Counted from the first letter of the stretch, positions 1-24,836 are shown. The stretch: DNA of 32,000 nt from Alkalilimnicola ehrlichii MLHE-1 (GCF_000014785.1 NC_008340.1:1200001-1232000); one strand, 5' to 3'. The notes: generated by a model not told the origin, from the letters alone. Numbers and translations: made by a program.

Positions 1-3000
1 AGGCGCTGGTGCCGGAGGGGCTGGAAGAGGTCGCCGAGTCGGCCATCGACAGCGGACTGGAGGCCGTCGACGACGAGCTCGACAACCAGGATCTGCCGGA
101 CTTCGGGCTTGGGCTCGGTCTGGTGGACGCCTCGGCCATCGTCACCCTGGAGGACGGTGCGGAACTGGACGCGGGCGGGAACGTGAACATCCATGCCGAG
201 GCGCAGCGCACCGCCCGCGCCGAGGCGCATGCCGACGGCGACGGCCTCGGTGGCGCCTTCGCCCTGGCCTCGATCAGCGGGCAGACCGCGGTCACCGTGG
301 AAGAGGGCGCGAGCATTGTGGCCGGCGGTGACATCGACCTGCGCGCGGCCAGTCACAATGAATTGGTGGCCGAGGCCGTCACCGAGGTGGGCGACGGTTT
401 TGACGTCGGCCTGGGCGGCAGTGTGGCCCTGGGCTTCCTACAGTCGGAGCCGGAGGATGGCGGCACCACCGTCCAGGTGCAGGAGGGGGCGACCCTCGCC
501 GCCGGGGGCGATCTCGGCCTGTCGGCGTTCACGGAACACGATGTCACCGTCGACGCCACCACCACGCTCGGCAGCGGGGGCGAGGCGGCTTTTGGCGCCA
601 CGGTGGCCTACCTGGGTCTGGACTGGACCACCCGCACGCTGCTCACCGGCGGGGCGGTCGCCGACGACACCGTTGAACCCCCCGTGGGCATCGTCGCCGG
701 CGGTGACCTGCGGATGGTGGCGCGCACCGACCAGGCGATCCACACCGGGGCCTCGGTGGAGACCACCGGCGACATCAGTGTGGGGCTGGCGGCGGCGGTG
801 GCCGAGTTGAACAACACCACCCGCGTGGTCCTGGACGGTACGGTGCGGGCGGGCGGGGACGCGACCCTGCTGGCGGAATCCATCACCCGGGCGCAGCACA
901 CCGTGGCCACCACCCGGGCCGCGGAGGACGCTGACAATAACGGCGGTAATGGCAACGACGGACCGGACGAGGCCGCCGACGATCAAGGCACCTCCGACTA
1001 CGTGGCCGGTCTGGTCGGTGACGTGGATACCGGCGAGCCGGAGGAGACCCCGGGTGCCGGTGGCAATGGCGGCCTGGCCCTGGATATCGGGGCGGCGGTG
1101 GCCTACACCGATGCCCGGGACAGCGCCAGCACCACCCTCGGAGGCAATACCCAGCTGTTGCCACCCGCCGGCCCGCTGGGACCGGGTGGCCAGGTGGCCA
1201 TCGTCTCCCGCCGGCAGTTGGACAATCTCTCCACCCGCGCCCGCTCCGGCACCGAGGCCACCGGCCCGGACGGTGACGACGGGGCCAACAGCATCAACGC
1301 GGCGGTCAGTTACGCCCGGCTTGACCAGATCGCCCGTACCGAGATCGCCGACGGTGCCCGCATCGAGGCCGGGCGCATCGGCGTTGGCGCCGAGGTGGAT
1401 CTGCCCGCACGGGTGGCGTGGGGTGACGAGGACAACGAGGACGGGCCGGGCGGGCTGGACGACATTGCGGGCGCTGACAGCGATGATCTGGACGACTGGT
1501 TGACCAGCGAGGCCAGCACGTCGTCGGAGACCGGCGGCACGGTGAATATCGCCGGGGCGGTGAACCTGCTGGACCTGACCGCCACTGCCGAGGCGCTGGT
1601 GGGCACTGGTGACGATCCCACCGATGTGACCACCCTGCACGCGGTGGGTGATGGCGGTGACTGGGAAACCGAGCTGGGCGGTGACACCACCTGGCACTGG
1701 GACGATGCCGTTGCCGTGGCGGCCCGCAGCCGGGTGGAGACCGTGGACGTGGCGGGGCAGGCGGCGGCCGCCGGCACCGTGGGTGTTGGTGGCGGCGTCA
1801 ACTGGCACCTGCGGGAGAGCACCGCCCGGGCGCGCCTGGCCGGCAGCGCGGATATCAGCGCCGACACCGGCGGCGTGTCGGTGTCCGCCGATCGTCGGGA
1901 CAGGGCCATCGTGCTCACCCCGATAGCCGGAGAGTCTGATGGTGGTGCCGTTGGCCTGGGGGCGTCGGTGGCCTATGCCCGTATCGACGGGACCAGCCAG
2001 GCGCAGCTCGACGAGGGCGCCATGGTCGCCGCCGGCGGTGCCCTGGCGGTCACCGCTGGCGGCGACCTGCATGCCGAGATCCTGACCGCCAGCAAAACCA
2101 GCGGCGACGCCACCGCCGGGATCGCCGGCACGGTGGCCTTCGCTGACATCTCCCTGGATACCACCGCCGCAGTCCACGGCCAGCCCGTGGACAATGCCCT
2201 GGAGGTGGGCGACCTGTACCTCCACGCCCTCGACCTGCAGGACTACCAGGTGCAGGCCTCGGCGGAGGCCCAGGGCGATGTCGCCATCGGCCTGGCCGGC
2301 GCGGTACTGGATACCGAGGCCGGCACCCGGGCCCTGCTGTACCGGGATGTCACCACCGACGGCGACGTGGTGCTGATCGCCGACTCCGAGACCACCGGGC
2401 GCGGCGTGGCCGCGAGCACCCGGGCCGAAACCGGGGAGGCGGGTGACAACGGCAACGGAGAGAACAATACCGGCGACGATCGCGACCTCAACACCGTCGA
2501 CTTTGTCCAGCAGCGGGGCGAGCGCGGCAACGAGGGGGTCGATGACGGCCTGCAGGACGTGGCCGGGGACCCCGGTGCCGGCCAGTCGGAAGAGGCCGGC
2601 TTCGACGTCAATGTCGGCGCGGCGGTCGCGTTTACCGGTGCCGACGACTCGGCCGGGGCGCACATCGGCGAGGCGGTGACCATCAGCGGCCCGGGCGGGG
2701 GTGCCGCGGGTGACGTGGCCGTGCTCGCGCGGCGCGCCGAGAGCGGCTATCGCGGGCGCGCCCAGACCGAGGTGGAGACGGCCCCCGAGGATGACGGCGT
2801 CGGTGTCGGGGTCGGCGCCGCACTCACCCTGACCTTCATGGACAACAGCGCGGAGGCACTTATCGGCGCCTCGGCGGTGGTTGACGCCCATCGCGTCGGG
2901 GTGGCCGCGGACGTCATCCTGCCGGACCACTTTGAGGGGCCTGCCTGGGACGGTCTCGAGACCCTCCGCGACCTGGCTCAGGACGACGACGATGAGCTGA

Positions 3001-6000
3001 CCTACGACGAGGCGGAGTCCAATCTGCTGGACATGGCCGACGGTTGGCTCACCACCTATGCCAACGCCGCGGCCGAATCGGAGGACGGGGTCTTCGACGG
3101 CGCCGCCGCCGTCAACTTCGCCCGCTACAACGTCAACGCCGACGCCTGGATCGGTGAGGGCGCCGAGGTGACGGCCGGCGGCACGGCTGGCGATACCGGC
3201 TGGAGCACCGAGCTGCGCCCGGCGCAGGACAATGGCGATCCGGCCCTGAGCCGTCGGTGGAACGAGGCGATCACCGTCAGCGCCGGGGCCGATGTCCGCA
3301 CCATCGACGTCGCCGGCAACGTCGGTGGCCTGCTCACCGCCGGCGTCGCCGGGGACGCCACCGTGGGCATCGGCGCCGGTTTCGCCTGGTTGGAGCGCGG
3401 CGGCCACGTCAGCGCCGGTATCGCCGACCACGCGGTGGTGAGCGCCAGCCACGGGCAGGGCACCATTGGCGTGCACGCCGAGCGCTTCGACCAGTCCATC
3501 GGCATTGCACCCAGTTCCGGCCACGGGGCCAGCTTCGCCGGCAACGGTACGGTGGTGGTCAACCGCCTGGACACCGATACCGTGGCCGCGGTGAGCCACG
3601 CGGCGGCGGTCGACGCCGCGGCACTGACCGTCAGCGCCGGCCGCGATCTGCGCTGGTGGTCGGTGGCCGGTTCCATCACCCTGGCCGAAAGTGTCGCTGT
3701 CGGCGTCGGCATCTCTGTCAACGAACTGCGGACCGATACCCGGGCCGTGATCGGCGATGTGGCCGGTCTCCGCCCGGCGATGGCCGGCGGCGGGGACGTC
3801 ACCGAGCTGGATGACACCGAACAGGGGATTACCGCCGACCAGGTCACCGTGGCCGCACGCAGCGATGGCCTGGTGGGCAGTGCCTCCATCGCCGGCGGCG
3901 CCGCCGGTGAGACCGGCGAGCCGCCGGCCACCGACAACTGGACCGACTCCGGGCTGACCAATGACGTGATTGGTGTCACCTCCGATCGCACCGAAGGGGC
4001 GGAAGCCCCCGAGGATGAGACCATCGCCGAGGCCGTGCAGAGCGGGACCGGCGAGCCAGCCGGGGCGCTGGATGAGCAGGAGGCGTCGGCGGACGACCTG
4101 GACGAGGACGGCGACCTTGCCAACCCGGACCCCACCCAGCCCGACCTGGAGACCTTCCCCGACGAGGGTGCGGACATCCCGGACGCGGGCGCCGATGCCG
4201 ACAGCGAGGAGACGGACCTGGGCGTCGCCGTGGCGGGGTCGGCCTCGGTCAACCTCAGCAGTCTGAACACCACGGCGCTCATCGAGGACGTGTCGCTGGC
4301 GGCGCGCGATGCCGACACCACCGACGTTACCGCCAGCGCGGTGGCCGCCGTTGACACCATCGCCGTCAGCGGCTCCGGGGCCCTGGTGCTGGGCGGTAAC
4401 AGCAGCGACCCTCAGGTGGCCATCGCCGGCACCGTGGGCGTCAATCTGCTCGGCGACCACACCCGGGCGCGGCTGGTGGACACCCGGATCGAGCAACCCG
4501 GCCAGGTGACGGTGGAGGCCCTTCGCGACGGTGAGTTGATCAGCGTCGGCATGGGGTTGGCGATCACCGCCAGTGGCTCCACCAAGGCCGCCGCCGTGGC
4601 CGGTTCCGTCTCCCTCAGCGACATCAGTAATGAGACCGCGGCCACCATCGAGGGCGGCACCATCGGCGACCCCGGGAGCGATCCCGAACCCGACGACGGG
4701 AGCGGGGTGCAGGTGCTGGCCTATGACCGCTCCAGCATCGGGACCGGTGGGGGTTCGCTGTTCGGCGGCAAGGGCGGTGGCTTCGGCGCCGCGGTGACTC
4801 TGGCCCAGGTGCGTAACACCATCGATGCGGGCATTCTCGGTACGCGCATCACCGACGTGGCCGAGGTGACCGTGGATGCCCTCAGCGCCACCCGCATCAT
4901 CAGTGCCGGCGCGGTGCTGGGTTACGGCGGAAAAGGGGCGGTGGGCGGCGCGGTGGTGTTGAACCGCATCGGCAACACCACCAAGGCCGCGATCGCCGAC
5001 CGGGACGACGGCGACGACGTGGAACGCGCGGAGATCACCGCCAATGAGCGGGTGCGGGTGCGGGCGCGCAGCGCCAGTGACGATGAACGCGTGGCGCTGG
5101 ACGACCGCATCGATGCCGCCGGTGGCGGTCACGTTTACAACTTCAGTGGTGAGGGCACCGCGCTGGCCGAGCCCGAGGCCGAAGGTGATCGCGACTGGGG
5201 CGATGACAGCTACGAAACCGGCGGCGATGAGTTCGCCGGCGAGGGCGGCGACCAGGCGGAGATCGACAGCGGCTACGATGACGCCGCCGAGGATGCCCGC
5301 TTCGACGGTGGCCCGCTGGAGGGTGATGCCATTGTCGGTGTGGCCGGCAGCATCAGCGCGAGCGGCAAGGCCAGCATCGGGCTGGCCTTCAGTGGCAACC
5401 AGATCGACAACGACTACATCGCCGAGGTGCGCGGCGCCCGGATCGACGGCGTGGATGGCGAGCTGAGCGTCGATGCCGCCGACCGGTCGCGGGTCATCGG
5501 CCTGGGGGTGGGCGGCGGCGCCTCGGGCAAGGTGGCCATCGCGGGCTCCGGCGCCGCCAATCTGATCGGTGGCGAGGCGCGTGCCACCATCGGCGGCAGC
5601 CGTGCGCAGGCGGACGACGGCCCGGTCCACCTGGCGGAGATCGACGCCGGGGCGGTGAATCTCGGCGCCGATCGCGGTAGCCGCATCGATGCCCTGGCCG
5701 GCAACGTCGCCTTCTCCGGCAAGGCCGGCATCGGTGCCGCCGTGGCCTACAACGCCATCGACACCGCGGTGGCGGCCGAGATCAACCACGCCGATCTCGC
5801 GCTGTCCGGGGGCGACCTGAGCATCGACGCCGGCAGCTCTTCCGACATCTACGGGGTGGCCGTCTCCGGCGGGGGCGGTGGCAAGGTGGCGCTCAACGGC
5901 AGTGCCATCATCAACTTCATCGATCTCGATGTCAGCGCCGGGCTGGGCAGCAGCCGGGTGCGCGACACGGGTGCCGTGCGAATCACCGCCGGCGACCATG

Positions 6001-9000
6001 GCGCCGGTGGCCAGGCCGCCATCTGGAGCCTGGCGGGAGCCATCAACGGTGCCGGCAAGGTCGCGCTGGGTGCGGCGGTGGCCTACAACGAGATCGAATC
6101 CCGCTTTGCCGCGGACATCACCGGCGCCGACATCGAAGCGCTGGGCCCGGTGGATGTGACCGCAGAGGTCAGCGGTGACATCAACACCCTGGGCGCCGCC
6201 GGCGGAGGCGCCGGCAAGGTGGCCCTGGGGGGCGCCGCCACCGTGAGCCGGATCGACAACACCGTCACCGCAAGCCTGACCGGGAGCCGGCTTTACGCCC
6301 CGGCGGCGCTGGTCACCGTGGCGGCGTCGCAGGATAGCCGTATCCGCGCCCTGGGCGCTGCCATTCAGGGTGGCGGCAAGGTGGGCGGGGGCGCGGCAGT
6401 GACCGTTAACCAGATCGGCTCCGGGGTGACTGCCGAGGTGACCGGCGGTGCGCCCGGTCTGCCGGCCGCCATCGATGATCCCGCCGGCGGCGGCGACGCC
6501 GAGGCCCACTACCATCTCGGTCACCTGGTGGTGGATGCCCGCTCGGACAACGAGATTCAGACCATCGCCGCCGGTGCCGCCGCCGGGGGTGTCGGCGGCG
6601 TGGCCGGTTCGGTCTCCACCAACCTGTTCGGCAACCGGACCAAGGCGCGGATCGCCGACGGTGCCGACGTGCTGGCCGAGGGCCACGTGCTGGTGGACGC
6701 CGCCAGCAGCGACAACGTGGCGTTGGTGGCCGGCAGCCTCGGCTTCGGCGGCAAGGCCTTTGGCGCTGCGGGCACCGTCGCGGTCAATATCGTGGAGAGC
6801 GAGACCCACGCCTGGATCGGCGGTGAGGACCCCGGCGACGCCACCGTGGTGGTCGCCCGGGCGCAACAGCCGGGCACGGTCAGTGGCCGTGACCACCGGT
6901 TGCACGCCATCCCCGGGCTGGTGGACAAGTCCGACGGCGAGAACACGTTTGATGACGAGGACGGTGTCGAGATCTACGACAGCGAGGTCGACGACGCCGC
7001 CGAGGACCGCGACGGCACCGGGGGCGGTAGCACCGGAGGCTTCTCGGTGGAGGACGAGGCGGGCGATTACCTGCTCAGCCGCCTGGTCCGGGATGATGAT
7101 CGCGGGGTGGACGGCGTCCGGGTGAGTGCCCGCTCCGATCAGACCACCAGCGCCGCCCTGGCCACCGCCGGCATCTCCGCCAACGTGGTGAAGGGCGGGG
7201 TGGGGTTGGCCGCCACCGCGTTGGTCAACCGCATCGCCGGCGAGACCACCGCCGGTATCCGCAACAGCGAGGTCAGCTCGGAGACCGATGTGGCGGTCTC
7301 TGCCGGAGGGCATGTGCATACCCGCGGCCTGGTCATCGGCGCTGCCCTGGGCAGTGTCGGTGCCTCCGGTGCGGCGGTGGTGGATGTGGTCACCCGCCGG
7401 ACCCGCGCCGGGATCGACGACGCCACGGTGACCGCCGGGGGGCGGATCGACGTGGACGCCGCCGGTTCTCAGAGCACCAGCGGCCTGGCCATCGGGGCCT
7501 CCGGCGGCACCTACGCCAGCCTGGCCGGCGGCGGGGTGGTCAGCCGGCTGGGGGCGCAGACCCTGGCGGAGGTCACCGGCAGTCGCCTGGAGGCGGGCGA
7601 CGTGGGCGTGCAGGCGGACAGCGACACCGGGGTGACGATGCTCACCGGCACCGTCTCGGTGGGTGCCGCGGCCGCCGCCGGCTCCTTCAACGTGGCGGTG
7701 GTGGACGCCGTCACCGTGGCCCGCATCGCCGACAGCGATCAGGACCGTTCCCGGCTCTCGGTGGAGGGCGAGGTGGACGTGGCTGCGGAGTCGTTGAACC
7801 GCTTCGGAACCATTGCCGCCAGCGGTGCCGCCGGCGGCACGGCCATTGCCGGCACCCTGGGCCTGAGCCTGCAACAGAGCGTCACCCAGGCCCGGATCGA
7901 GGGCGCGGCCATCGGCCAGGGGGACGACGATGTCCCCGCGCAGGTTAACGTCCGCGCCCGCGACCACCTGGAGGTGGGGGCCTTTGCCGGTGGTGCCTCC
8001 CTGGGCATGGGGATGGGCCTGGGGGCCGCCGCCAATGTCTTCAGCGGCCAGGCCTCCGTCCTCGCCGAGGTCAGAGACGGCGCGGCGATCGAGGCCGGCG
8101 CGGTGTCGGTCTCCGCCGAGCGCAGTGCCGAGCTGAGCCTGTATACCGCCACCCTGGGTGCCGGCCAGACCGGCTTCAGCGCCGGGGTCGGCGTGATCCT
8201 CCTGGGGGTGGGCGCCGGCGAGGTGACGCCCACCCGGGGCGAGGATGATATCGCCGAAGACGACGTGGAGGGCGGTCTCGAGCGGGAGCTCAATGGCAAC
8301 GGCGGCGGCACTCTGGACACCGCCAATACCTTCGCCAACTTCAGTTTCGAGGGGGATCCGGACAATGACGCCAACACCGAGGACGATGTCGGCGGCAGCC
8401 TCAGCGACGATCAGCGGGACAGCCTGGAGAGCGACCTCGAGTTCAACCTGACCGAGTCGGTGATCGATGGCGATGACCACCAGACGGTGGCCCGCATCGA
8501 TGCCAGCGATCTCCGCGCCGACCGGGTGGACGTGACCGCCGATGACCGGGTGGCCACCCGCAACTACGTGGGCTCCGGTGCGTTGGGGGGTGTCGGCTTC
8601 GGCGCCGCGGTGGGCTTCACCCGGGTGGGTAACGGGGTGGTGGCCGAAATCGGGGGTGACGGCACCCTGGATGTCGGCGAGCTCACCATCCGAGCCGGTC
8701 ACGACGACCTTGGTGGTGGCACTGCGGCGGAGACCCGCGCCTGGGCCGGGGCCGCAGGCGGCATCGGCCTGGCCGCCGCCTATGCCGATGCCGATGTGAC
8801 CACCGGGGTGCGTGCCACCCTGGGCCCGGTGAACCTCCAGCGCGACGCGGCCGACGACGCCGGCGTCGAGCTCACCATCGACGCCTTCGACCACGGCGGG
8901 ACCTATGCCGAGACCATCGGCGTGGCCGCGGGCTTCGTGGCCGGTGTGGGGGCGGCGATCTCCCGCGCGGCGCGAACCTCCACGGTAATCGCCGAGGTGG

Positions 9001-12000
9001 CCGACGACACCGCCGTCGGCAGTGACGACGAGGATTCGGCGGACTTCGATCTCTCCCTCAGCGCCGTCTCCGACGGTGGCGTGGCGGTCGATGGCATCGC
9101 CCTCGGGGCCGGCGTGGTGGGCGGCGGCGCCGCCGCCCTGGCGCTGGGCGAGGAGCGCTCGACGGTGCAGGCGCGCGTGGGCAACGGCGCTGACCTGCGG
9201 CTGGGCGACGGCGCGCTGACCCTGGATGCCCTGGCCCGGCCGGATGTGACCGCGGACGGGGTCGGGGTGGCGGCAGCGGTGACCGGGGCCATCGCTGCGG
9301 CGGTTTCCCGCGCCTACTCTTCGGCCACCGTTGAAGCGGCCGTCGGTGACTTAGACGGCCCCGGTGGCGCCGCGGTGCAGGCGCGCGCGGTGGATGTCCG
9401 GGCACGCAGCCTGCCGGTGGGCAGCTACGGTGCCGAGGCCGAGGCCATCGCGGGGAGTATCGCCAAGGGCGTGGCGGTCTCCGGGTCCTTCGCCTTCGCC
9501 ACCGACACCGCCACCGTAAACGCCGGCCTGGGGCCGGGGGCGGACCTGACCCTGGGCGGCGACGGGCTGTCGGTGTGGGCCGAGGCCGATCCCGCGGCCC
9601 GGGCCCGGACCCACGCCCGCACCTTCGCCGGCGGGGTCGCCTTCGGTGCCAACCTCTCGCAGGCCGCGTCCAATGCCGAGGTGGCAGCGGTGGTGGGTGA
9701 CCAGGCCTCGGTGCGGCTGGCCGACGGGGTGGACGAGGCCGATTTCACCATCCGCGCCATCGCCAATGACGACGGCAGTCGTACCGCCTACGCCACCGGC
9801 GCGGTGAGCGGTGGCGCGCTGCTGGTGTCCGCCAACGGCGGCTATGCCCGGGCCTATGAGCAGACGGCGGTGGACGCCCGCATCGGCACCGGCGCGACCC
9901 TGGACGCCGGTGCCGGTGAGGTGCGGCTGGGCGCCGACGCCACGCCCCACGCCCGGGCCGTGCTCGCCAGCCAGTCTTACGGTGGCGCGTTGGCCATCGG
10001 GGCCGCCATTACCGACGCCCGGGTGGCGGCCGACGTGACCGCTGCCATCGGTGACGGAACCGCCATTCTGGGCGGCGGTGACTTGACGGTGCACGCCCAC
10101 GTCGCCCGCCCGGCGGGTGCCGACAGTGCCTTTGCCCGCTCCGAGGCCAGCAGCGGCGCGCTGGCATCGGCCAATGCGGCCCTGGCGGAGGCCCGCAATC
10201 ACGCCCGGTCGCGGGCGCTGACCGGGGCCGGTGTCACCCTGCCCGGTGGCGTGGTGAGCCTGCGGGCGGAGAACCACAGCCGGCAGCACGGCCACAGTGC
10301 GTCGGAATCCTACGGCGCCTTCGCGGCCGGGATGACCGTGACCCGGGTGGAGTCCGACACCCTGACCCACGCCATCCTCGGCACCGACAACCAGGCCAGC
10401 GACAACGATGATCGGCCGGACGTGGTGGATGTCACCACCAACGCCAGCAGCCACGACCACGGCTTTGGCCAGACTGCCACCGGGGGCGCCATCGACGGGG
10501 CCGCGGCGGAGGTGCATACCTTCAGCACCGCCGATAACCGGGCCCAGGTGCTGGGCCACCACAGCGACCCGCTGCAAGTGGGTGTGCTGAATGTCCGGGC
10601 GCTGCAGGACACCCGCTTCTCCGGCGTGGTGGACACCAGCCGCGCGTCGGTGGCCGGTGCCAGTGGTGCCCGCCTGTACCATAACGCCAACCGGGTCACG
10701 GGCATCGTCAACGTCGACGAGGAGCGGGAGGCCTTCTACGGGGAAACCAGTGTAGTGGAGGCCGGGATCGGCGACCACGCCGATATCCGCGCCCTCTACG
10801 TGGACGTGATCGCCGAGCAGGCGGTGGAGCGCGTCGCCGACGCCGGTAACGACATCCGGGTTGCGGGCGGCGGGGTGCTGGGTGCCTCCGCCGGCCGCGG
10901 CGCCACGTATATTGAGACGATCACCCGGGCGGGTATCGGCACCGGGGCCACGGTCAACGTGGAGCTGGACCTGCTGGTCCGCGCCATCGAGGCGATCACC
11001 GCCGAACAGGTCGCCCGTCTGAACACCGGCAACGCCATCGATATCGCCCGGGCCGAGTCGGTGATGCACACCGATCACCAGAACGACGTGATCATCGGCG
11101 GAAACGCCAACATCACCGCCGGTGGCGATGTGGTGCTCTCCAACGCCACCGAGTTGGACCTGGTGGCTCATACCCGCGCCCGCACCTCCGGGGTGGCCAG
11201 TTTCGCCCGCGGCAACAGCGAGGCGGAGGCCGATGTGCGTGAGGGGATCACCGTGGGCAACGGCGCGCGGCTGGCCTCCGCCGGCAACGTGGTCATGCGC
11301 ACCGGCCTGGGCGACGGCGGTTTGCCGGCTCGCAAGGGCGTGGAGGCCGATACCTACCTGTACAACAAGGGGGCCCTGCCGCTGGAGAACGACCCTCGCG
11401 TGCATGCGGACCTGGTGGTGGACAGCCGTATCGACGTGGCCGACAACGCCGTGGTCGAGGCCGGACAGGACGCCTATCTGATCGCGCCCGTGGGTTTCCG
11501 GTACCGGGCCCGGGGCGAGGGCGAGGGCCAGGACATCTACCGGCGCGCCGCCGAGTCCATCGCCAACTTCTTCCGCCGGCTGGTCCGTGCCGATGAGGTC
11601 TCGCTGGCGAAGGAGGTGCGTAGCGAGGACCTGGTCCGGGGTAGCACCATCACCATCGACGGCCAGGTGGTGGGCGCCGGCGGCATGCACCAATACCTGT
11701 GGGTGCGCCAGGGCGACGATGACGACGAACGCATCCTGGCCAGCCCGGGTGTCGGCTACTTCTTCGAGGAACGCGACGTGCGCGGTGACCTGGAGGCGCT
11801 GGTCGGTGCCTACCGGGATCTGCTGGGGGAATACGTGGAGCCGGATCCGGACGATCCGGAGGGCTCCGGTCTGCTGTTCTGGCGCGCCGCCGCCCAGATC
11901 GAGACCCTCGCCGGCCGCCTGGCTGCCCTGGGGGATGAGGATGACGGGCCCTATGACGGCGGCCGGGCGGTGCCCTTCATCGAGGTGGAGGACATCACCG

Positions 12001-15000
12001 CCACCGGTGGTGATGTGGTCGTCCGGGCGGATGCGGTGGAGGGTGGTGGCGAGGTCCGGTTGGGCCCGGACCTGGAGGCCATCTTCAGCGACTTCGCCGG
12101 TGGGGATCTCAACCAGGTGCCGGCCGAGTTCCTGGAGCCGGGCGGGCCGAGCATTCGCATCCTGGTGGAGTCCAACGAGTGGCTGCAGGTCAACGACCTG
12201 ATCATCGACGACCGCCGTGACGGCAGCATCACCATCGCCCAGGAGAGCGGCGCCTTCGGCGGTATCGCCGTGCCGACCCGGGTCTCCGGGGTGGGTGAAC
12301 TGCCAAGCGGGCTTCGCTACGACACCGGCGGGGTGGAGGCCACCCCGGAGATCCGCGTGGTGCACCAGTTCGAGGTCCCGCCCCAGGAGGACCACCTCTA
12401 CACCAACCCGGAGATCCGCCTGGGCCACGAGCCGGACCCCGCCGACCAACTGGAAGGCGAGTCGGTGACCGCCCGCATCATCAACCCGCGCGGTCTGGTG
12501 CAGGTGGGCAACCAGGCCGGCAGCATTATCTCCTCGGCCAGCATCGAAGCCGCCGCGGTGGAGATCGTCGCCGGTGGTAATTTCGTGCAGAACTGGATTC
12601 CCGGGTTCTTCCACGCCGGCGGGCAGCCCGAGGCCGCCGGCGAGGCCAGCCGCATCCTGGCCGGGGGCGACATCTACATCAGCGCCGAGCACATCAATGT
12701 CAATGGCCTGATCCAGAGCGGGTTCGACGAGTGGACGCTGGATTTCTCCTCCGACCTGCTGGGGAATGCCGGGACCACCCTCGATTTCGACGCCGACAAG
12801 GGCCACAGCCTGGGTGATTACCTGGAGTGGTACGGCAAGGGTTATCGTGCCACCAAGGAGGTGGAGGAGGCCCCGATACCCTTCTGGGCGCAGTTCTTGC
12901 CGCCCTCCATTTGGCACCTGCTGGGCTATGGCTTCGCCCCCGACGTCGACGCGGCGGATGTGCCGGACGATTTCCGCACCGCCTACAACGCCGGCCGTAG
13001 CGGTGAGCAGTTCCTGCAGCTGACCGGCGGCGAGGGCTTCGACGTGGAACTCGGCACCGTGGCCAGCTTCTACGATGCCGAGGCCGACCGCATCGACATC
13101 CAGCGCGCCGCCGTGGGCGGTGGCTACATCTTCCTGGCGGGCGACGTGGTGAGCACCGGCGGAGGCGAGATCCGGGCCTTGTCGGGTTTCGGTGAGATCC
13201 GGGTGGATACCACCGGCGGCGGGGAGGACGCCTTCCGTACTCACCAGGATGTGGTGCTCTATGACCTGGACGCCGGGACCCAACCCCATGCGCCCAGTTT
13301 CGACCTGCCCGAGGAGGAGCTGATTTCTGCGGAGGGCCTAGCGCCCTGCCGGCCCTGCGTGAGGATCTGGGATACCGCCAAGCGTGACGGCGAGGGCAAC
13401 CCCATCGAGACCGTCTTCCAGCACGACTGGAACCCGGACCCAGCGGCCCCGGACGGGAGCTTCGGCACCATCGCCAAGACCGTCTCCCGGCTCGACCGCG
13501 AGCAGCGTGACGATGACTTCTTCCTGCTGCGCACCGTGGTCGACGAGGATGACCCCTTCTATGGCCAGGAGCAGGACGCAGGCTTCGGCCCCCGTCCGGG
13601 GGCCACCGCGCAGTACCTGCCCCGCGAAGGGATGCGCTACCTCTACGGCGACAGCGTGGATGAAGACTCCGGGCGGCTGCTGTTCCCGGACGACGATGTG
13701 CCGTCAGGGCCGGGCTATCAGTCCATGCGGGCGGACCGGGCTATCGACGTCGGGTTCATCGGCAACCCGGTGGGTACCATCGACATCAAGAGCATCGGTG
13801 ACGTGATCATCGACGGCAGTGTGCGCAACCCCCAGGGGCTGACCACGGTGGAGACCGTCGGTAGCATCCGGGAGCCGGAGCAGGGCGGGCTGTTGCAGGG
13901 TCGCCAGCTCACTCTGGAGGCCGGTGGCGCCGTCGGCAGTGAGGGCGCCCCGCTGCGGGTGATCGTGGGTGACGGCGAGGTCACGCCGGACGATGCCTGG
14001 CTGGTGGCCCTGGCCGGGGATGGCGGGGTCTTCCTGGACGGCCTGCGCGGCGATCTGCCGGTGCGCGAGGTGGGGACGCTCAGCGGCCATACCGTGGACA
14101 TCGACGCGGCCCGTCACTTGATCGACCGCGGCACCGCCCCCGACCGGCCCACGGTCTACGGCGCCCGGGTGCATCTGCGTGCCCGGGACGGCTCTATCGG
14201 TGGCAGGGAGCAGGGCGAATTCGTGCTGCCGCTGACCATCGCCTCCGGGGTCGGGGTTGTGGTGGACGATCCGGACGCGCTGCCGGATTGGCTGAACCTT
14301 CCGCTGGGCAGCGCCAACGTAACCGCCCGCGCCGCCGGCCATGTCCTGCTCGCGGAAGATGCCCGCGGACTGGCCAGTGCCGGTGTGCCCGTCGACGGTG
14401 ACATTCACGTGGAGGCGCTCCGCGCCGCCGAAGGCGATGTCCGGCTCTTTATCGCCGACGGCAAGCTGATCAGCGCCATCGACGCCGAGCTCGATACCGA
14501 CCGCATGGTCCGCCTGGGCGAGATGTGGGACTCGCTGGGGATGCTCGACGACGGCTCGCCCAACAGCGGCGTAGCCCGCTTTGTCGAGGATCAGGTGGAG
14601 GCCTTCGAGGCCTCGGTGGAGAGCCGCTACCGTGACTGGTGGGAGCTGGACCGCCTGGCCGGGGAGGACGGCGGCTTCGACCTGGCCCCGGATCGGGCCC
14701 GCATTTACGCCCACCGGGCCGGCGTCGACGGCTCACCGGAGGCGTGGGACGAGACGGCGGACCCGCAGGGCGTGGCCGACAACACCGCCGCGGTCAATGC
14801 CTGGCTGGAGGGCCGTTACGGCGCGCTCAGCGATGAATTGGGCGAACTGCTGCTGGAGGGCAACGGCGACCAGTCCCTGGCGGACCTGGGTACGGTGGTC
14901 GAGGAACCGCTGGCCGAGGATCCGGCCACCGGGGAGATGCTGTTCTATGAACGGGTCGAGTTCGATTACCAGGCGCCGGACAGTGTCCGTGACCAGCTCG

Positions 15001-17165
15001 CGGAAGGGGCGGAGTGGACCGAGGAGCAGTTGCTCAACGTCCTCAGCGAGGACCGGATGCTGGAGACTGTGGACACCCAGTACCAGCGGGTGGAGACCAT
15101 TATCCAGGGGGAGAATGTGGCCATCGAGGCGCCGCGGGGTTCCATCGGCTCGTCTGACGACCCGCTCTGGATCCCGGCCCCCGAGGACGAGGACAGCAAC
15201 TTTGATTTCACCGAGGAGGAACGCGCCGCCCTGGTCAGCGCCCAGCCGGGCGATGTCCGGCTGATCGGCGAGGTGGTGTTGGTGGATGGCCAGGTCATGG
15301 ACCTGGGCGATTTCCTGCGCCTGCTCGGCACCGGGGGCCCCGGCGGGCTCACCCTGGAGGATCTCGACACGGTCGATTTCGACGGCATCGAGATCGAGCA
15401 GGTACGCTACGCCGGGGTCATCGCCACGGAGGGGGGGCAGTCGCACCATGCCGCCGATGACCTTGGCGGCGACATCTTCCTGGGTGTCCCCGGCACCAGC
15501 ATCGCCCTGGAGCGGCTCTGGGGTGGTGGCGACATCCGCGTGCGGGTCGGCGGCGGTATCGAAGCCCACGACGACCCGACACGGGGCGATGATCCGGAAG
15601 ATGCCATCATCCGCGGCGGTGCGGCGGGGGTGCTGCTGGAGGCGGCCGGCGGCGGCATCGGCGCCGAGGGGTTGCCGCTCACCACCGCGTTGGACCCCCG
15701 CGCCCTGATCACCGCCCGGGCCGTGGGCTCGGTGCACCTGCACGCCCTGGGCGGTAACCTGACCCTGGACAGTGTCTTCAGCGAGCAGGGCGATGCCGTG
15801 CTGGCTGCCGACCAGGGGCATATCGCCCGTTTGGCGCTGCCGGGCGCGCCGCTGGCGGACTTCGGCACCCTGGACATCGCCGCCGATGAGATCCGGCTGG
15901 ATGCCGGCACCTTTGTCGGCGCGGTGGATCGCGACGCCTTCCTGGCCCTGGACAGCACGGCTGAGCCGGGGGACCTGGAGGCGGTCACCGACGCCGCCAT
16001 GCGCCTGCGCCACGGTGACGACGCCCGGGTGACCGGTTCTGCCGGGGACCGCTTCCAGGTGTTCGCGCCGGAAGGGGGGCTGGTGGTCCGCGATGTGGAA
16101 GCCGGCGGCCGGGTCGTGGCCGGCGCCTGGGAGGATGTCACCCTGGAGCGGGTGACCAGCACCGCTGGCGACGGCGAGGCGGCCTTCGTCTTCAGCGAGA
16201 CGGGCTTCATCATCGGCAGCAATGAGGCCGGCCTGGAGGAACCGCTACACCTGCGGGCACTGGGCGGGGACGCCACCACGCGGTTGATCGCCCCGCTGGG
16301 CATCGGTCTGCCCGATGACTTCCTGTTCCTCGATGCCACCCGGATCAGCTCCGCCACCACCCTGGGCGGTCACGCCTTCCTCCACGGCACCACCGATTTG
16401 CGAGCCGATCTGATAGACGTGCCCACCGGGCGGTTGGAGGTGCGCGCGCCCCAGGCCATCGAAATCGATCGGTTGCGGGTTCACGACCGGGTGGACCTCA
16501 AGGGCGACGCCATCGAGGCGCACATCGAGCACACCGCCAACCCGGACCCGCTGCCGCTGGACGTGGTGGGCCTGGTCGAGCACTACGCATCGGAGGTGGA
16601 CCTGTCCGTGGACACCCCGGCCGATCTCATCGTCGAGCGGCTCTATGCCCGCCGCGCCCGATTGGAGACCAACACCACGCGAGTCGACATGCCGGACAAC
16701 GACATCTTCCACTGGTTGGAGGTGTTCACGCCGGAGGTCCACCTGTGGGCCGACAACCAGCGGCCCGACCGGCGCGACGTGGACGTCCAGCTCTATGAGC
16801 CGGGGTACCGCTTCTTTGTCGACCAGGACGGGCGGCACACCATCACCAACGCCTTCAGCGGCGCCTACCGGCCCGGCTACCGCCTGGAGCTGGTCAACTA
16901 TCAACCGGGCCGCGACCGCGCCCGTTTCGATGTGGATGGTCGCAGCATTGTGCGCGATGCCGGTCGGCTGGAGCAGCGCATCGTGCCGATCCCCGACACC
17001 CTGCCGGGGCTGCGGGCCTTCTGGCCGGACGACGAGGTCTCGGTGCAGGTGGTCGGTGCCGGCCTGCCGGGGGCGCCGCCCGACTTCCCGGTTAACCTGG
17101 ACTGGACCGGTCTGTTGCAGGGCGATGACGATCAATCCGGGGCAGAGGAGAATGGCGCTCAATGA
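1..17165 (+). CDS. Giant secreted filamentous exoprotein, TpsA-like / LktA-family-like beta-helical adhesin (5' partial, >5,718 aa)
   Basis: One uninterrupted frame runs from the window edge (codons in phase with nt 3/9) to TGA at 17163-17165. The true start and any N-terminal TPS secretion domain therefore lie upstream of the window. The translation is Gly/Ala/Val/Asp/Thr-rich with recurring beta-helix-like units (e.g. GAGKVALGAAVAYNEI). It has almost no Lys and only two Cys, as expected for type V secreted filamentous proteins. Its stop overlaps the start of a TpsB gene. The family call rests on motif recognition plus context, not on a search. Confidence 0.9.
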   Translation, partial: ALVPEGLEEVAESAIDSGLEAVDDELDNQDLPDFGLGLGLVDASAIVTLEDGAELDAGGNVNIHAEAQRTARAEAHADGDGLGGAFALASISGQTAVTVEEGASIVAGGDIDLRAASHNELVAEAVTEVGDGFDVGLGGSVALGFLQSEPEDGGTTVQVQEGATLAAGGDLGLSAFTEHDVTVDATTTLGSGGEAAFGATVAYLGLDWTTRTLLTGGAVADDTVEPPVGIVAGGDLRMVARTDQAIHTGASVETTGDISVGLAAAVAELNNTTRVVLDGTVRAGGDATLLAESITRAQHTVATTRAAEDADNNGGNGNDGPDEAADDQGTSDYVAGLVGDVDTGEPEETPGAGGNGGLALDIGAAVAYTDARDSASTTLGGNTQLLPPAGPLGPGGQVAIVSRRQLDNLSTRARSGTEATGPDGDDGANSINAAVSYARLDQIARTEIADGARIEAGRIGVGAEVDLPARVAWGDEDNEDGPGGLDDIAGADSDDLDDWLTSEASTSSETGGTVNIAGAVNLLDLTATAEALVGTGDDPTDVTTLHAVGDGGDWETELGGDTTWHWDDAVAVAARSRVETVDVAGQAAAAGTVGVGGGVNWHLRESTARARLAGSADISADTGGVSVSADRRDRAIVLTPIAGESDGGAVGLGASVAYARIDGTSQAQLDEGAMVAAGGALAVTAGGDLHAEILTASKTSGDATAGIAGTVAFADISLDTTAAVHGQPVDNALEVGDLYLHALDLQDYQVQASAEAQGDVAIGLAGAVLDTEAGTRALLYRDVTTDGDVVLIADSETTGRGVAASTRAETGEAGDNGNGENNTGDDRDLNTVDFVQQRGERGNEGVDDGLQDVAGDPGAGQSEEAGFDVNVGAAVAFTGADDSAGAHIGEAVTISGPGGGAAGDVAVLARRAESGYRGRAQTEVETAPEDDGVGVGVGAALTLTFMDNSAEALIGASAVVDAHRVGVAADVILPDHFEGPAWDGLETLRDLAQDDDDELTYDEAESNLLDMADGWLTTYANAAAESEDGVFDGAAAVNFARYNVNADAWIGEGAEVTAGGTAGDTGWSTELRPAQDNGDPALSRRWNEAITVSAGADVRTIDVAGNVGGLLTAGVAGDATVGIGAGFAWLERGGHVSAGIADHAVVSASHGQGTIGVHAERFDQSIGIAPSSGHGASFAGNGTVVVNRLDTDTVAAVSHAAAVDAAALTVSAGRDLRWWSVAGSITLAESVAVGVGISVNELRTDTRAVIGDVAGLRPAMAGGGDVTELDDTEQGITADQVTVAARSDGLVGSASIAGGAAGETGEPPATDNWTDSGLTNDVIGVTSDRTEGAEAPEDETIAEAVQSGTGEPAGALDEQEASADDLDEDGDLANPDPTQPDLETFPDEGADIPDAGADADSEETDLGVAVAGSASVNLSSLNTTALIEDVSLAARDADTTDVTASAVAAVDTIAVSGSGALVLGGNSSDPQVAIAGTVGVNLLGDHTRARLVDTRIEQPGQVTVEALRDGELISVGMGLAITASGSTKAAAVAGSVSLSDISNETAATIEGGTIGDPGSDPEPDDGSGVQVLAYDRSSIGTGGGSLFGGKGGGFGAAVTLAQVRNTIDAGILGTRITDVAEVTVDALSATRIISAGAVLGYGGKGAVGGAVVLNRIGNTTKAAIADRDDGDDVERAEITANERVRVRARSASDDERVALDDRIDAAGGGHVYNFSGEGTALAEPEAEGDRDWGDDSYETGGDEFAGEGGDQAEIDSGYDDAAEDARFDGGPLEGDAIVGVAGSISASGKASIGLAFSGNQIDNDYIAEVRGARIDGVDGELSVDAADRSRVIGLGVGGGASGKVAIAGSGAANLIGGEARATIGGSRAQADDGPVHLAEIDAGAVNLGADRGSRIDALAGNVAFSGKAGIGAAVAYNAIDTAVAAEINHADLALSGGDLSIDAGSSSDIYGVAVSGGGGGKVALNGSAIINFIDLDVSAGLGSSRVRDTGAVRITAGDHGAGGQAAIWSLAGAINGAGKVALGAAVAYNEIESRFAADITGADIEALGPVDVTAEVSGDINTLGAAGGGAGKVALGGAATVSRIDNTVTASLTGSRLYAPAALVTVAASQDSRIRALGAAIQGGGKVGGGAAVTVNQIGSGVTAEVTGGAPGLPAAIDDPAGGGDAEAHYHLGHLVVDARSDNEIQTIAAGAAAGGVGGVAGSVSTNLFGNRTKARIADGADVLAEGHVLVDAASSDNVALVAGSLGFGGKAFGAAGTVAVNIVESETHAWIGGEDPGDATVVVARAQQPGTVSGRDHRLHAIPGLVDKSDGENTFDDEDGVEIYDSEVDDAAEDRDGTGGGSTGGFSVEDEAGDYLLSRLVRDDDRGVDGVRVSARSDQTTSAALATAGISANVVKGGVGLAATALVNRIAGETTAGIRNSEVSSETDVAVSAGGHVHTRGLVIGAALGSVGASGAAVVDVVTRRTRAGIDDATVTAGGRIDVDAAGSQSTSGLAIGASGGTYASLAGGGVVSRLGAQTLAEVTGSRLEAGDVGVQADSDTGVTMLTGTVSVGAAAAAGSFNVAVVDAVTVARIADSDQDRSRLSVEGEVDVAAESLNRFGTIAASGAAGGTAIAGTLGLSLQQSVTQARIEGAAIGQGDDDVPAQVNVRARDHLEVGAFAGGASLGMGMGLGAAANVFSGQASVLAEVRDGAAIEAGAVSVSAERSAELSLYTATLGAGQTGFSAGVGVILLGVGAGEVTPTRGEDDIAEDDVEGGLERELNGNGGGTLDTANTFANFSFEGDPDNDANTEDDVGGSLSDDQRDSLESDLEFNLTESVIDGDDHQTVARIDASDLRADRVDVTADDRVATRNYVGSGALGGVGFGAAVGFTRVGNGVVAEIGGDGTLDVGELTIRAGHDDLGGGTAAETRAWAGAAGGIGLAAAYADADVTTGVRATLGPVNLQRDAADDAGVELTIDAFDHGGTYAETIGVAAGFVAGVGAAISRAARTSTVIAEVADDTAVGSDDEDSADFDLSLSAVSDGGVAVDGIALGAGVVGGGAAALALGEERSTVQARVGNGADLRLGDGALTLDALARPDVTADGVGVAAAVTGAIAAAVSRAYSSATVEAAVGDLDGPGGAAVQARAVDVRARSLPVGSYGAEAEAIAGSIAKGVAVSGSFAFATDTATVNAGLGPGADLTLGGDGLSVWAEADPAARARTHARTFAGGVAFGANLSQAASNAEVAAVVGDQASVRLADGVDEADFTIRAIANDDGSRTAYATGAVSGGALLVSANGGYARAYEQTAVDARIGTGATLDAGAGEVRLGADATPHARAVLASQSYGGALAIGAAITDARVAADVTAAIGDGTAILGGGDLTVHAHVARPAGADSAFARSEASSGALASANAALAEARNHARSRALTGAGVTLPGGVVSLRAENHSRQHGHSASESYGAFAAGMTVTRVESDTLTHAILGTDNQASDNDDRPDVVDVTTNASSHDHGFGQTATGGAIDGAAAEVHTFSTADNRAQVLGHHSDPLQVGVLNVRALQDTRFSGVVDTSRASVAGASGARLYHNANRVTGIVNVDEEREAFYGETSVVEAGIGDHADIRALYVDVIAEQAVERVADAGNDIRVAGGGVLGASAGRGATYIETITRAGIGTGATVNVELDLLVRAIEAITAEQVARLNTGNAIDIARAESVMHTDHQNDVIIGGNANITAGGDVVLSNATELDLVAHTRARTSGVASFARGNSEAEADVREGITVGNGARLASAGNVVMRTGLGDGGLPARKGVEADTYLYNKGALPLENDPRVHADLVVDSRIDVADNAVVEAGQDAYLIAPVGFRYRARGEGEGQDIYRRAAESIANFFRRLVRADEVSLAKEVRSEDLVRGSTITIDGQVVGAGGMHQYLWVRQGDDDDERILASPGVGYFFEERDVRGDLEALVGAYRDLLGEYVEPDPDDPEGSGLLFWRAAAQIETLAGRLAALGDEDDGPYDGGRAVPFIEVEDITATGGDVVVRADAVEGGGEVRLGPDLEAIFSDFAGGDLNQVPAEFLEPGGPSIRILVESNEWLQVNDLIIDDRRDGSITIAQESGAFGGIAVPTRVSGVGELPSGLRYDTGGVEATPEIRVVHQFEVPPQEDHLYTNPEIRLGHEPDPADQLEGESVTARIINPRGLVQVGNQAGSIISSASIEAAAVEIVAGGNFVQNWIPGFFHAGGQPEAAGEASRILAGGDIYISAEHINVNGLIQSGFDEWTLDFSSDLLGNAGTTLDFDADKGHSLGDYLEWYGKGYRATKEVEEAPIPFWAQFLPPSIWHLLGYGFAPDVDAADVPDDFRTAYNAGRSGEQFLQLTGGEGFDVELGTVASFYDAEADRIDIQRAAVGGGYIFLAGDVVSTGGGEIRALSGFGEIRVDTTGGGEDAFRTHQDVVLYDLDAGTQPHAPSFDLPEEELISAEGLAPCRPCVRIWDTAKRDGEGNPIETVFQHDWNPDPAAPDGSFGTIAKTVSRLDREQRDDDFFLLRTVVDEDDPFYGQEQDAGFGPRPGATAQYLPREGMRYLYGDSVDEDSGRLLFPDDDVPSGPGYQSMRADRAIDVGFIGNPVGTIDIKSIGDVIIDGSVRNPQGLTTVETVGSIREPEQGGLLQGRQLTLEAGGAVGSEGAPLRVIVGDGEVTPDDAWLVALAGDGGVFLDGLRGDLPVREVGTLSGHTVDIDAARHLIDRGTAPDRPTVYGARVHLRARDGSIGGREQGEFVLPLTIASGVGVVVDDPDALPDWLNLPLGSANVTARAAGHVLLAEDARGLASAGVPVDGDIHVEALRAAEGDVRLFIADGKLISAIDAELDTDRMVRLGEMWDSLGMLDDGSPNSGVARFVEDQVEAFEASVESRYRDWWELDRLAGEDGGFDLAPDRARIYAHRAGVDGSPEAWDETADPQGVADNTAAVNAWLEGRYGALSDELGELLLEGNGDQSLADLGTVVEEPLAEDPATGEMLFYERVEFDYQAPDSVRDQLAEGAEWTEEQLLNVLSEDRMLETVDTQYQRVETIIQGENVAIEAPRGSIGSSDDPLWIPAPEDEDSNFDFTEEERAALVSAQPGDVRLIGEVVLVDGQVMDLGDFLRLLGTGGPGGLTLEDLDTVDFDGIEIEQVRYAGVIATEGGQSHHAADDLGGDIFLGVPGTSIALERLWGGGDIRVRVGGGIEAHDDPTRGDDPEDAIIRGGAAGVLLEAAGGGIGAEGLPLTTALDPRALITARAVGSVHLHALGGNLTLDSVFSEQGDAVLAADQGHIARLALPGAPLADFGTLDIAADEIRLDAGTFVGAVDRDAFLALDSTAEPGDLEAVTDAAMRLRHGDDARVTGSAGDRFQVFAPEGGLVVRDVEAGGRVVAGAWEDVTLERVTSTAGDGEAAFVFSETGFIIGSNEAGLEEPLHLRALGGDATTRLIAPLGIGLPDDFLFLDATRISSATTLGGHAFLHGTTDLRADLIDVPTGRLEVRAPQAIEIDRLRVHDRVDLKGDAIEAHIEHTANPDPLPLDVVGLVEHYASEVDLSVDTPADLIVERLYARRARLETNTTRVDMPDNDIFHWLEVFTPEVHLWADNQRPDRRDVDVQLYEPGYRFFVDQDGRHTITNAFSGAYRPGYRLELVNYQPGRDRARFDVDGRSIVRDAGRLEQRIVPIPDTLPGLRAFWPDDEVSVQVVGAGLPGAPPDFPVNLDWTGLLQGDDDQSGAEENGAQ
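4767..6800 (+). repeat. Degenerate tandem ~54-codon coding repeats (G-G-K-x-x-x-G-x-A-x-x-x-N/x-x-I modules) inside the giant ORF
   Basis: In-frame Gly-Lys motifs have Lys codons at 4770, 4932, 5367, 5529, 5721, 5883, 6057, 6216, 6378 and 6753. Most spacings are 159-192 nt, and 162 nt is the commonest. Unit examples: FGGKGGGFGAAVTLAQV, YGGKGAVGGAVVLNRI, ASGKVAIAGSGAANLI, FSGKAGIGAAVAYNAI, GGGKVALNGSAIINFI, GAGKVALGAAVAYNEI, GAGKVALGGAATVSRI, GGGKVGGGAAVTVNQI, FGGKAFGAAGTVAVNI. The repeats are diverged at the DNA level. Confidence 0.8.
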
Positions 17166-18847: not shown

Positions 18848-18944
18848 GTGCTGCATGACCGCGGCCGGCACCGTGCCCCCAGCTGGATCCCACCCGCAGG
18901 CTATGCTGTAAGGTAGTACAGGCCCACCGCAGGGAGAAGCGGCC

Positions 18945-23327: not shown

Positions 23328-23350
23328 GGCGGACCGGGCCCGAGGGGGCT

Positions 23351-23366
23351 GGCGAGCGTACTCGCC
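23351..23366. terminator. Weak hairpin in the 41-bp gap between convergent genes (possible bidirectional terminator)
   Basis: GGCGAG-CGTA-CTCGCC forms a 6-bp stem with a 4-nt loop between the stop at 23327 (+) and the stop at 23369 (-). There is no U-tract, so support is weak. Confidence 0.2.
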
Positions 23367-23368
23367 GC

Positions 23369-24148
23369 CTAGGGCACGAACACCACCTCACCGCTCTGCG
23401 GGTTGACCAGCGTCAGCCCGAAGTCGGTGGTGCCGCGGGTCACCCGCACGAAGGCCCCGGTATCCAGGCAGACGTGGGACAGGCGCCGGCGGAGGGTGCG
23501 ACCGACGGTGTGGCCGCAATAAGTGGTGGACAGCGATTCACTGCGCTCGGGCAGGGGGCTGCGCAGCCGCCCCATGAGCCGTCGGGACCAGAGCAGCGGC
23601 GTCGGGTCGACGCCGGGCAGGCCGGCGTCGATGTCGGCGTCACTCAGCAGCCCCTGTGGCGCCCCCGGACTCACCAGTTCGGCATGGACCAGTTGAAAGC
23701 GCCCGGCGCCGCTGCCCACCACCAGCACATGGGGCAACTCGGCCTGCATGTGGAGCAGGGGCATCAGCGGGTGGTCCGCGGGGTCGGGATCGAGCAGCAG
23801 GTCCTGCGCCCAGGTGTCGGCGCCGTTGGCCAGCAACAGGTGGGCCGCCTCGATCCTGCGCAGGGACCCGGGCGGTGCCTCCAGCCAGTCCCGGATCATA
23901 TCGTCGTGATTGCCCCGTACGCTGTGGAACCAGGACGCCAGCAGCAGTTCCAGGCAGGCCACCGACTCCGGCCCCCGGTCGGTCAGATCGCCCACGCACA
24001 GCAGACGGTCGCCCCCTTCCGGGTTGAAGTCGACCCGTTGCAACCCCTCATTGAGCAGGGAACGGCAACCGTGCAGGTCACCGACCACCCAGTCCCGGCG
24101 CTGGTGGTTAGGCGGCAACCGCTCAATGATGGTCTGGTGTCGAGCCAT
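23369..24148 (-). CDS. Ser/Thr protein phosphatase-type metallophosphoesterase (lambda phosphatase / PrpA-PrpB-like, PPP family)
   Basis: The 259-aa ORF carries the PPP metallophosphoesterase motifs in the canonical order: VVGDLHGC, CVGDLTDRGP, VRGNHDDM, then HAELV and YCGHT. A GGAAGA sits about 7 nt upstream of ATG 24148. Confidence 0.85.
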   Translation of the reverse strand: MARHQTIIERLPPNHQRRDWVVGDLHGCRSLLNEGLQRVDFNPEGGDRLLCVGDLTDRGPESVACLELLLASWFHSVRGNHDDMIRDWLEAPPGSLRRIEAAHLLLANGADTWAQDLLLDPDPADHPLMPLLHMQAELPHVLVVGSGAGRFQLVHAELVSPGAPQGLLSDADIDAGLPGVDPTPLLWSRRLMGRLRSPLPERSESLSTTYCGHTVGRTLRRRLSHVCLDTGAFVRVTRGTTDFGLTLVNPQSGEVVFVP

Positions 24149-24331
24149 GACAGGTCTTCCGTTGCGTAGTATCAGGCTAGCAGCGGTGGCAGGGAGCTGA
24201 CTCTTTAGGTAGTTCCCTCTAGGTAGAGAGACGAATTACCGCGCAGGGCCCTTCGGCATAACCTGACAGTGAATTCGGCGGGAGCACAACCGCCGGACCC
24301 GAGACCCAACTCAATGCCTGAGGTGACCATC

Positions 24332-24724: not shown

Positions 24725-24746
24725 AGCCATGGTGTGTGACGGCGAA

Positions 24747-24790
24747 CAGGGCCCCTGGTGAACAAAGGCGTTCCCAGGGCCCTGCCTTTT
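24747..24790 (+). terminator. Rho-independent terminator after the small secreted-protein gene
   Basis: CAGGGCCCCTGG (24747-58) pairs with CCAGGGCCCTG (24774-84), giving 11 bp with one bulged C and a 15-nt loop. It is followed by CC-TTTT (24785-90) and sits 23 nt after the stop codon. Confidence 0.6.
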
Positions 24791-24836
24791 GATCACAAAA
24801 AATGAACATATTTCATCTATTGCCTTGTCCCATCGT

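Follow-up and report, generated by a model that had tools for sequence, protein, structure and literature searches.

The stretch of DNA analysed here (the window) comprises 32,000 nucleotides (nt) of the Alkalilimnicola ehrlichii MLHE-1 genome (GCF_000014785.1 NC_008340.1:1200001-1232000). It opens with most of a giant open reading frame (ORF) that resembles the genes for TpsA proteins, the exported partners in two-partner secretion (TPS). This is followed directly by a gene for a TpsB transporter. The features of this gene pair are as follows; amino acid (aa) positions are counted from the first residue encoded in the window.

3..17165, plus strand: 3′ 94% of a giant tpsA-like gene, 5,720 codons plus stop (full gene 6,040-6,062 codons)
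3..4700, plus strand (aa 1-1566): zone 1, decayed ~53-aa LktA-type modules with acidic Asp/Glu/Gly-rich insertions between them
4749..6866, plus strand (aa 1583-2288): zone 2, 11 well-preserved modules of 53-64 aa, a G-K motif in 10 of the 11
7194..11018, plus strand (aa 2398-3672): zone 3, the repeat family of zones 1 and 2 minus the lysine
11100..17162, plus strand (aa ~3700-5720): zone 4, a non-repetitive, conserved tail of ~2,000 aa
17162..18847, plus strand: tpsB, a 561-aa ShlB/FhaC/HecB transporter with signal peptide, POTRA_2 and ShlB barrel

Translation of nt 3-17165 of the plus strand gives 5,720 codons with zero internal stops and a TGA stop at 17163-17165. The reading frame is open up to the left edge of the window and thus the giant gene is truncated at its 5′ end. 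A preliminary description, made by a model from the sequence alone, had likewise reported a single ORF across 17.1 kb that is incomplete at the 5′ end. The giant gene upstream of the same TpsB is called as 6,040 aa in GCA_049262545.1 (CP183314.1) and as 6,062 aa in Logan contig SRR32708590_64; therefore about 320-342 codons lie 5′ of the window. The part of the protein encoded in the window has a mass of 579 kDa, an isoelectric point of 4.2 and a net charge of about -578 (929 acidic vs 351 basic residues). It contains 28 lysines in total, and half of these (14) lie in the zone 2 G-K motif or next to it. Lysine scarcity was considered as a peculiarity of the giant protein and dropped, as all genes of the window are lysine-poor.

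The gene at 17162-18847 encodes a TpsB. Its start overlaps the stop of the giant gene in the tetranucleotide ATGA (17162-17165), which bears out the gene order A then B with a coupled overlap given in the preliminary description. The translated sequence begins with a Sec signal peptide, MKRWGSEESRRAPLLAVVVCLPLLTAGAVHA, which ends in AGAVHA and is followed by QTP. It matches the PF03865 barrel (window positions 17162-18844, E-value = 5.5e-27, 95.5 bits, cut-off 22.7) and PF08479 POTRA_2 (E-value = 3.7e-16, 59.2 bits, cut-off 24). The aa sequence is 100% identical to the NCBI entry [quoted passage not shown], and the identical 561-aa protein is present in GCA_049262545.1 (CP183314.1), in Logan contig SRR32708590_64 and in one third short contig.

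An ortholog, P0037, of 6,067 aa, covers aa positions 1-5720 of the window protein at its positions 343-6067 with 86.3% identity and 7 gaps. The first residue of the window corresponds to residue 343 of P0037, and the N-terminal part of P0037 ends where the window starts. P0037 opens with a long (extended) signal peptide that begins MKNRMQGTRRGRRRDKTARNRPVEVPGWRRDPLALAISAALACGGAFPSPGA. This is followed at aa positions 82-228 by a match to NF012204, adhes_FxxPxG (110.3 bits, cut-off 60, E-value = 7.8e-32). The FxxPxG motif of P0037 reads LLFATPHGMLVG; the LktA-type secretion-domain motif LLFATPHG (FxxPxG) stands where NPNGI would be expected, and no NPNL or NPNGI motif is present. Thus the prediction that upstream sequence would carry a TPS secretion signal holds, in the ortholog, for the extended signal peptide and for a secretion domain, but not for the NPNL/NPNGI motifs that had been named. 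The same domain is seen in a more distant homolog, P0010 (38% identical), with 136.7 bits to NF012204; here TIGR01901 is just over its cut-off (30.3 bits) and PF05860 is under its cut-off (27.1 bits). A partial homolog, P0014, starts with a signal peptide and then displays FFVDPMG, as seen by eye.

A frame of this length raises the suspicion that repeats were misassembled, that the gene is degenerate (a pseudogene) or that, at 71% G+C, the frame stays open by chance. Long spurious ORFs do arise at high G+C, antisense ORFs of 2,818 and 1,312 aa overlie the giant gene, and the relative on contig L004, from a long-read metagenome, is broken into three ORFs. However, the direct DNA repeats within positions 1-17165 display an identity of only 60-82%, and Tandem Repeats Finder yields a single trivial 24-nt array and nothing else; there is thus nothing for an assembler to collapse or expand. 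The frame is unbroken in two assemblies as well as in orthologs at 86%, 67% and ~28% identity. Over the last 3,333 codons the two independent assemblies agree completely, and the giant genes at three further loci show identities of 89%, 67% and about 28%. Relative to the closest ortholog, 954 codons carry synonymous and 372 non-synonymous differences, and codon positions 1, 2 and 3 differ at 258, 171 and 1,073 sites, respectively. The bias in codon position and the synonymous excess indicate purifying selection on the sense frame, which is also the only frame that matches the curated family. Since the DNA repeats are so diverged and the substitutions are mostly synonymous, the ORF is a real gene. 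The artefact was rejected on repeat divergence, intact orthologs and codon-position bias, and the probability that can still be assigned to it is negligible.

The two antisense ORFs are at 438-8894 (minus strand, 2,818 aa) and 9351-13289 (minus strand, 1,312 aa). They are regarded as shadow ORFs cast by a G+C-rich coding sequence and not as genes, because the third-position bias and every family match belong to the plus frame. Their length is attributable to the G+C content along the giant gene, 69-76%.

The giant protein was searched against NCBIfam in overlapping 2,000-aa tiles. NF012206, LktA_tand_53 (cut-off 50 bits), is found in two tiles with 160.6 and 201.4 bits and with 7 and 8 stretches, respectively. 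Pfam gives zero matches in all tiles of the giant protein, and these include no Fil_haemagg repeats. The preliminary description had proposed a TPS-type exoprotein; this is upheld by the adjacent ShlB/FhaC-type TpsB, the LktA_tand_53 repeats and the NF012204 domain of the ortholog.

A hidden Markov model (HMM) of the G-K modules, refined by iteration over the giant protein itself, detects 33 significant copies, and 54 under lax settings, across aa positions 40 to ~3660. A second HMM was built from six clear units of 55-58 aa at positions 3040-3382 in zone 3 (E-values 1e-17 to 1e-24). It cross-matches modules in zones 1 and 2, among them those at positions 1909-1955 and 2198-2250, and merges with the rest when iterated. 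These cross-matches show zones 1-3 to be one repeat family of ~53-58 residues that has decayed unequally and carries Asp/Glu/Gly-rich insertions. The four zones proposed earlier therefore stand in part: the modules of zone 2 and the non-repetitive zone 4 are confirmed, but zones 1 and 3 do not form classes of their own.

Zone 1 displays HMM matches at aa positions 75-116, 189-223, 427-464, 584-631, 647-687, 934-970, 1175-1269 and 1407-1566. Examples of its acidic insertions, recognised by composition, are at positions ~300-350, 800-870 and 1300-1400. Zone 2 is the best run of modules in the protein (E-values per module 1e-11 to 4e-16), and is interrupted by an acidic insertion of ~100 aa at positions 1682-1780. 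The lysines of its G-K motif are at positions 1590, 1644, 1789, 1843, 1907, 1961, 2019, 2072, 2126 and 2251, with a spacing of 53-64 aa. Over positions 1590-2251 (nt 4770-6755) the lysine is retained through ten consecutive modules, despite a genome that nearly avoids this amino acid. It is also seen by eye in the modules of P0010 and of another relative, P0011. The G-K lysine is likely to be a structural or functional residue.

Zone 4 differs from the zones that precede it. No internal repeats were found in it by either repeat HMM or by BLAST of tile against tile, it has no Pfam and no NCBIfam match, and sequence searches of the PDB with single tiles and with family profiles gave nothing below E = 0.27. 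It is predicted to be mostly beta-strand, with a helical stretch near positions 4832-4952 predicted at low confidence. It is also the zone with the highest identity to P0037 (89.4%, vs 82.2%, 84.6% and 88.0% for zones 1, 2 and 3), and its collinearity extends, at identities as low as 27%, to P0010, P0011 and the L007 giant gene. A word-index search with aa positions 4000-5720 yields P0001 as the sole relative (23% identity over 840 residues). The ORFs upstream of P0001 hold 26 LktA_tand_53 stretches, and thus the P0001 locus is the same sort of giant gene, split in three ORFs.

With its giant size, its TpsB partner and its long C-terminal part free of repeats, the TpsA invites comparison with CdiA, the effector of contact-dependent inhibition (CDI), which would deliver a C-terminal toxin into neighbouring bacteria. 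The pre-toxin motifs VENN, ELYN, NEALV and LYVN, however, are all absent from the window protein, and its C-terminal zone is the best conserved part and not a hypervariable one, collinear even in distant homologs. No small immunity-like ORF comes after the giant gene; tpsB itself is next, in the order A-B, and cdi loci are ordered cdiB-A-I. With pre-toxin motif, variable C-terminus and immunity gene all absent, a CDI system was rejected and is regarded as very improbable. The absence of CDI motifs and the conservation of the tail favour a structural role over that of a polymorphic toxin. A giant adhesin of the RTX/type I kind was also rejected, as GG.G.D occurs just twice along the 5,720 aa, at isolated sites and not in an array of GGxGxD nonapeptides; no ABC transporter, membrane fusion protein or TolC secretion genes are present in the window.

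Relatives of the giant protein are sparse. An exhaustive phmmer search with aa positions 1-1200 of the window protein against 1.84 billion representative proteins gave 28 matches at E-value ≤ 0.001, and a word-index search with its first 600 aa gave nothing. The best phmmer relative, P0009, is a 5,011-aa fragment (72% identical), and the full-length P0037 belongs to its 90% cluster. P0010 (5,818 aa) and P0011 (5,248 aa, 31% identical, N-terminally truncated) were also found in this way. P0037 is encoded at locus L005, which is syntenic with the window: after the giant gene come TpsB (87% identical), genes for DUF7379 and CHAT proteins, and one for SnoaL-GGDEF. TpsB relatives at 87%, 63%, 40%, 33% and 29% identity are each encoded directly 3′ of a gene of 4,845-6,067 codons. 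A giant gene ahead of every TpsB relative indicates that this TpsB clade is devoted to giant partners. The suggestion that such a protein might be strain-specific finds no support, the locus being conserved in relatives at 87%, 63% and 40% TpsB identity.

The gene for P0010 occupies positions 6001-23457 of locus L013, a locus seen on two contigs. The C-terminal end of P0010 is an OmpA peptidoglycan-binding domain (PF00691, E-value = 8.7e-22), which the window protein lacks. OmpA domains attach to the cell wall in the periplasm, which suggests that TpsA proteins of this family keep their C-terminus in that compartment. By analogy, the C-terminus of the window protein could, hypothetically, have the same location. 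The tpsB and SapC-family genes of L013 are convergent to the P0010 gene and are not downstream of it.

A SapC-family gene (PF07277) adjoins the TpsB gene in L006 (11724-12488), L007 (11699-12502) and L013 (23511-24266); it is not found in the window. It is possibly a conserved accessory factor. The homolog of the giant gene on L004 (1-16531), a contig from a polished long-read metagenome assembly, is called as three overlapping ORFs of 286+, 3,091 and 2,176 aa. The split is probably due to frameshift errors. No TpsB gene was found within 10 kb downstream of these ORFs.

The locus is thus very probably a type Vb (two-partner) secretion pair, which consists of an LktA-type TpsA of ~6,040 aa and its TpsB and has the surface fibre or adhesin as its likeliest role. 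From the ortholog, it is inferred that Sec would export the TpsA over the inner membrane by means of the extended signal peptide. The FxxPxG secretion domain would then be bound by the POTRA domains of TpsB (gene at 17162-18847), and the chain would pass unfolded through the TpsB barrel. Outside the cell, ~55-60 copies of the 53-58-residue module (aa positions ~40-3670) may fold into a long beta-solenoid-like fibre, after which would come the conserved beta-rich tail of ~2,000 residues. The protein would be retained at the surface, where it most likely acts as a fibre or adhesin in attachment, aggregation or a biofilm matrix, a role suited to a soda-lake, high-salt habitat. The extreme acidity of the giant protein would fit this habitat.

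The founding member of the family suggests another role. For LktA of Fusobacterium necrophorum, a leukotoxin secreted by the T5b route and an operon lktB-A-C are reported (10.1101/534297), and the window protein and its ortholog share the NCBIfam family with it (NF012206 and NF012204, respectively). A released cytolysin that harms eukaryotic cells, e.g. grazers, would be the counterpart here. But the terminal OmpA domain of P0010 fits a cell-anchored and not a released protein. In addition, A. ehrlichii is a free-living soda-lake chemolithoautotroph, and the giant protein is almost twice the size of LktA, which has roughly 3,200 aa. The toxin role is drawn from the family name only; it is less likely than the fibre or adhesin, and is considered improbable.

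Several points weigh against the fibre or adhesin secreted by two partners. The N-terminal ~320-342 residues are outside the window, and the secretion domain is known from relatives. The general TPS models are both below cut-off on P0037 (PF05860, 18.3 bits, cut-off 33.5; TIGR01901, 14.6 bits, cut-off 29.1). These models had been proposed as a check along with LktA-family models, and it is the latter that match. The failure of the general models indicates that the LktA subtype is distinct from the filamentous haemagglutinin (FHA) subtype, and is still compatible with TPS membership. As the founding member LktA is a toxin, the adhesin role is a guess from lifestyle and architecture, and no literature on the expression, secretion or function of this protein was found. 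Two AlphaFold2 models, each from a 5-row alignment, have low mean pLDDT (predicted local distance difference test) values, 50.4 and 44.6, and Foldseek against the PDB gives no significant fold match for either.

Within these models, aa positions 3521-3840 (pLDDT 60-91) display strands of 16-20 residues with a period of ~52 residues, and positions 5150-5580 (pLDDT 60-90) display numerous short strands. The best non-significant Foldseek entries are beta-solenoid proteins: EtpA, VacA, EspC, HpmA, tapirin, Ag43, SufD and FapC. EtpA, a TpsA adhesin, is the top match of the tail model (E-value = 0.028, non-significant). The models thus hint at a beta-solenoid-like fibre.

An extension of the surface-fibre interpretation concerns the tail, and is rather unlikely. 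The conserved tail may be a new module that is retained in the periplasm or serves as an anchor. The giant proteins of this clade would then be permanently tethered through TpsB as envelope-spanning fibres, fixed to peptidoglycan by OmpA in one lineage, with SapC or, in Alkalilimnicola, the DUF7379-CHAT protein as a dedicated accessory. If true, this would represent a new topology and a new accessory set for type Vb secretion.

Downstream of tpsB the window contains the following genes.

18945..23327, plus strand: DUF7379-LCAT-CHAT protein, 1,460 aa; DUF7379 (three stretches), LCAT-like lipase/esterase (hydrolase) region, CHAT (caspase-like) domain at the C-terminus
23369-24148, minus strand: metallophosphoesterase, PrpA/PrpB-type Ser/Thr phosphatase-like (NF008516, E-value = 6.2e-25, under the equivalog cut-off); its gene and the CHAT gene converge
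24913-26001, plus strand: SnoaL_3-GGDEF diguanylate cyclase; a SnoaL-GGDEF gene also adjoins the locus in L005
25998-27557, minus strand: HDOD-GGDEF diguanylate cyclase; converges with the SnoaL_3-GGDEF gene, 4-nt overlap at the 3′ ends

The DUF7379-CHAT gene begins 97 nt past tpsB in the same orientation, and no terminator is predicted in the gap. Its product has no NCBIfam and no PADLOC match, and PADLOC also gave nothing for the tail, TpsB and the phosphatase. The gene is kept, as two genes, in L005 (the 87% relative), and SapC is found in its place in remoter loci. It is possibly an accessory gene, conserved only in the closest relatives. Literature searches for Alkalilimnicola with TPS or hemagglutinin, and for CHAT with TPS, gave nothing relevant. 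A cyclic di-GMP link between the GGDEF genes and the fibre genes is possible. Window positions 24001-29000 have a G+C content of 0.59-0.66, vs about 0.70 before; besides the GGDEF genes, this part contains a cytochrome b561 gene and an ORF of 145 aa.

At ~600 kDa the giant protein is among the largest TPS substrates, and its host is an environmental extremophile and no pathogen. The tpsA-tpsB pair is a test case for how a small TpsB barrel handles a chain of 6,000 residues, and for whether such fibres stay anchored at the C-terminus, as the homolog that ends in OmpA suggests. For annotation this means that such proteins would be overlooked if only PF05860 or TIGR01901 were used, since these general TPS models do not capture a secretion domain of the LktA type.

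LktA-family TpsA proteins with a TpsB are already known and are named by curated models; the window protein is an unusually large environmental member, and its clade shares a previously undescribed tail of ~2,000 residues. The prototype of the family (NF012204 and NF012206) is F. necrophorum LktA with LktB. Shared with it are the 53-residue tandem repeat, the FxxPxG N-terminal domain, present in the ortholog and homologs, a partner of the ShlB type, here encoded in the window, and, as predicted, the T5b route of secretion. The giant protein differs from LktA in its length (about 6,040 vs roughly 3,200 aa), in gene order (A-B vs lktB-A-C), in the conserved tail, which has no model, in its extreme acidity, and in its host, a free-living haloalkaliphilic gammaproteobacterium.

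With TpsA proteins of the FHA type (Bordetella FhaB, EtpA of enterotoxigenic Escherichia coli, HMW1) it shares the predicted dependence on a TpsB and, as far as the predicted fold indicates, the architecture of a beta-solenoid fibre. It differs from these in having no NPNL/NPNGI and no Fil_haemagg repeats, in sub-threshold PF05860 and TIGR01901 scores on the ortholog, and in a repeat unit of 53-58 aa whose modelled strands span 16-20 residues, vs coils of ~19 aa. CdiA is similar in size class, in TpsB dependence and possibly in a periplasmic C-terminal part, which is hinted at solely by the OmpA domain of P0010. Unlike CdiA, the giant protein displays no pre-toxin motif, its C-terminus is conserved and not variable, and its gene is not accompanied by an immunity gene.

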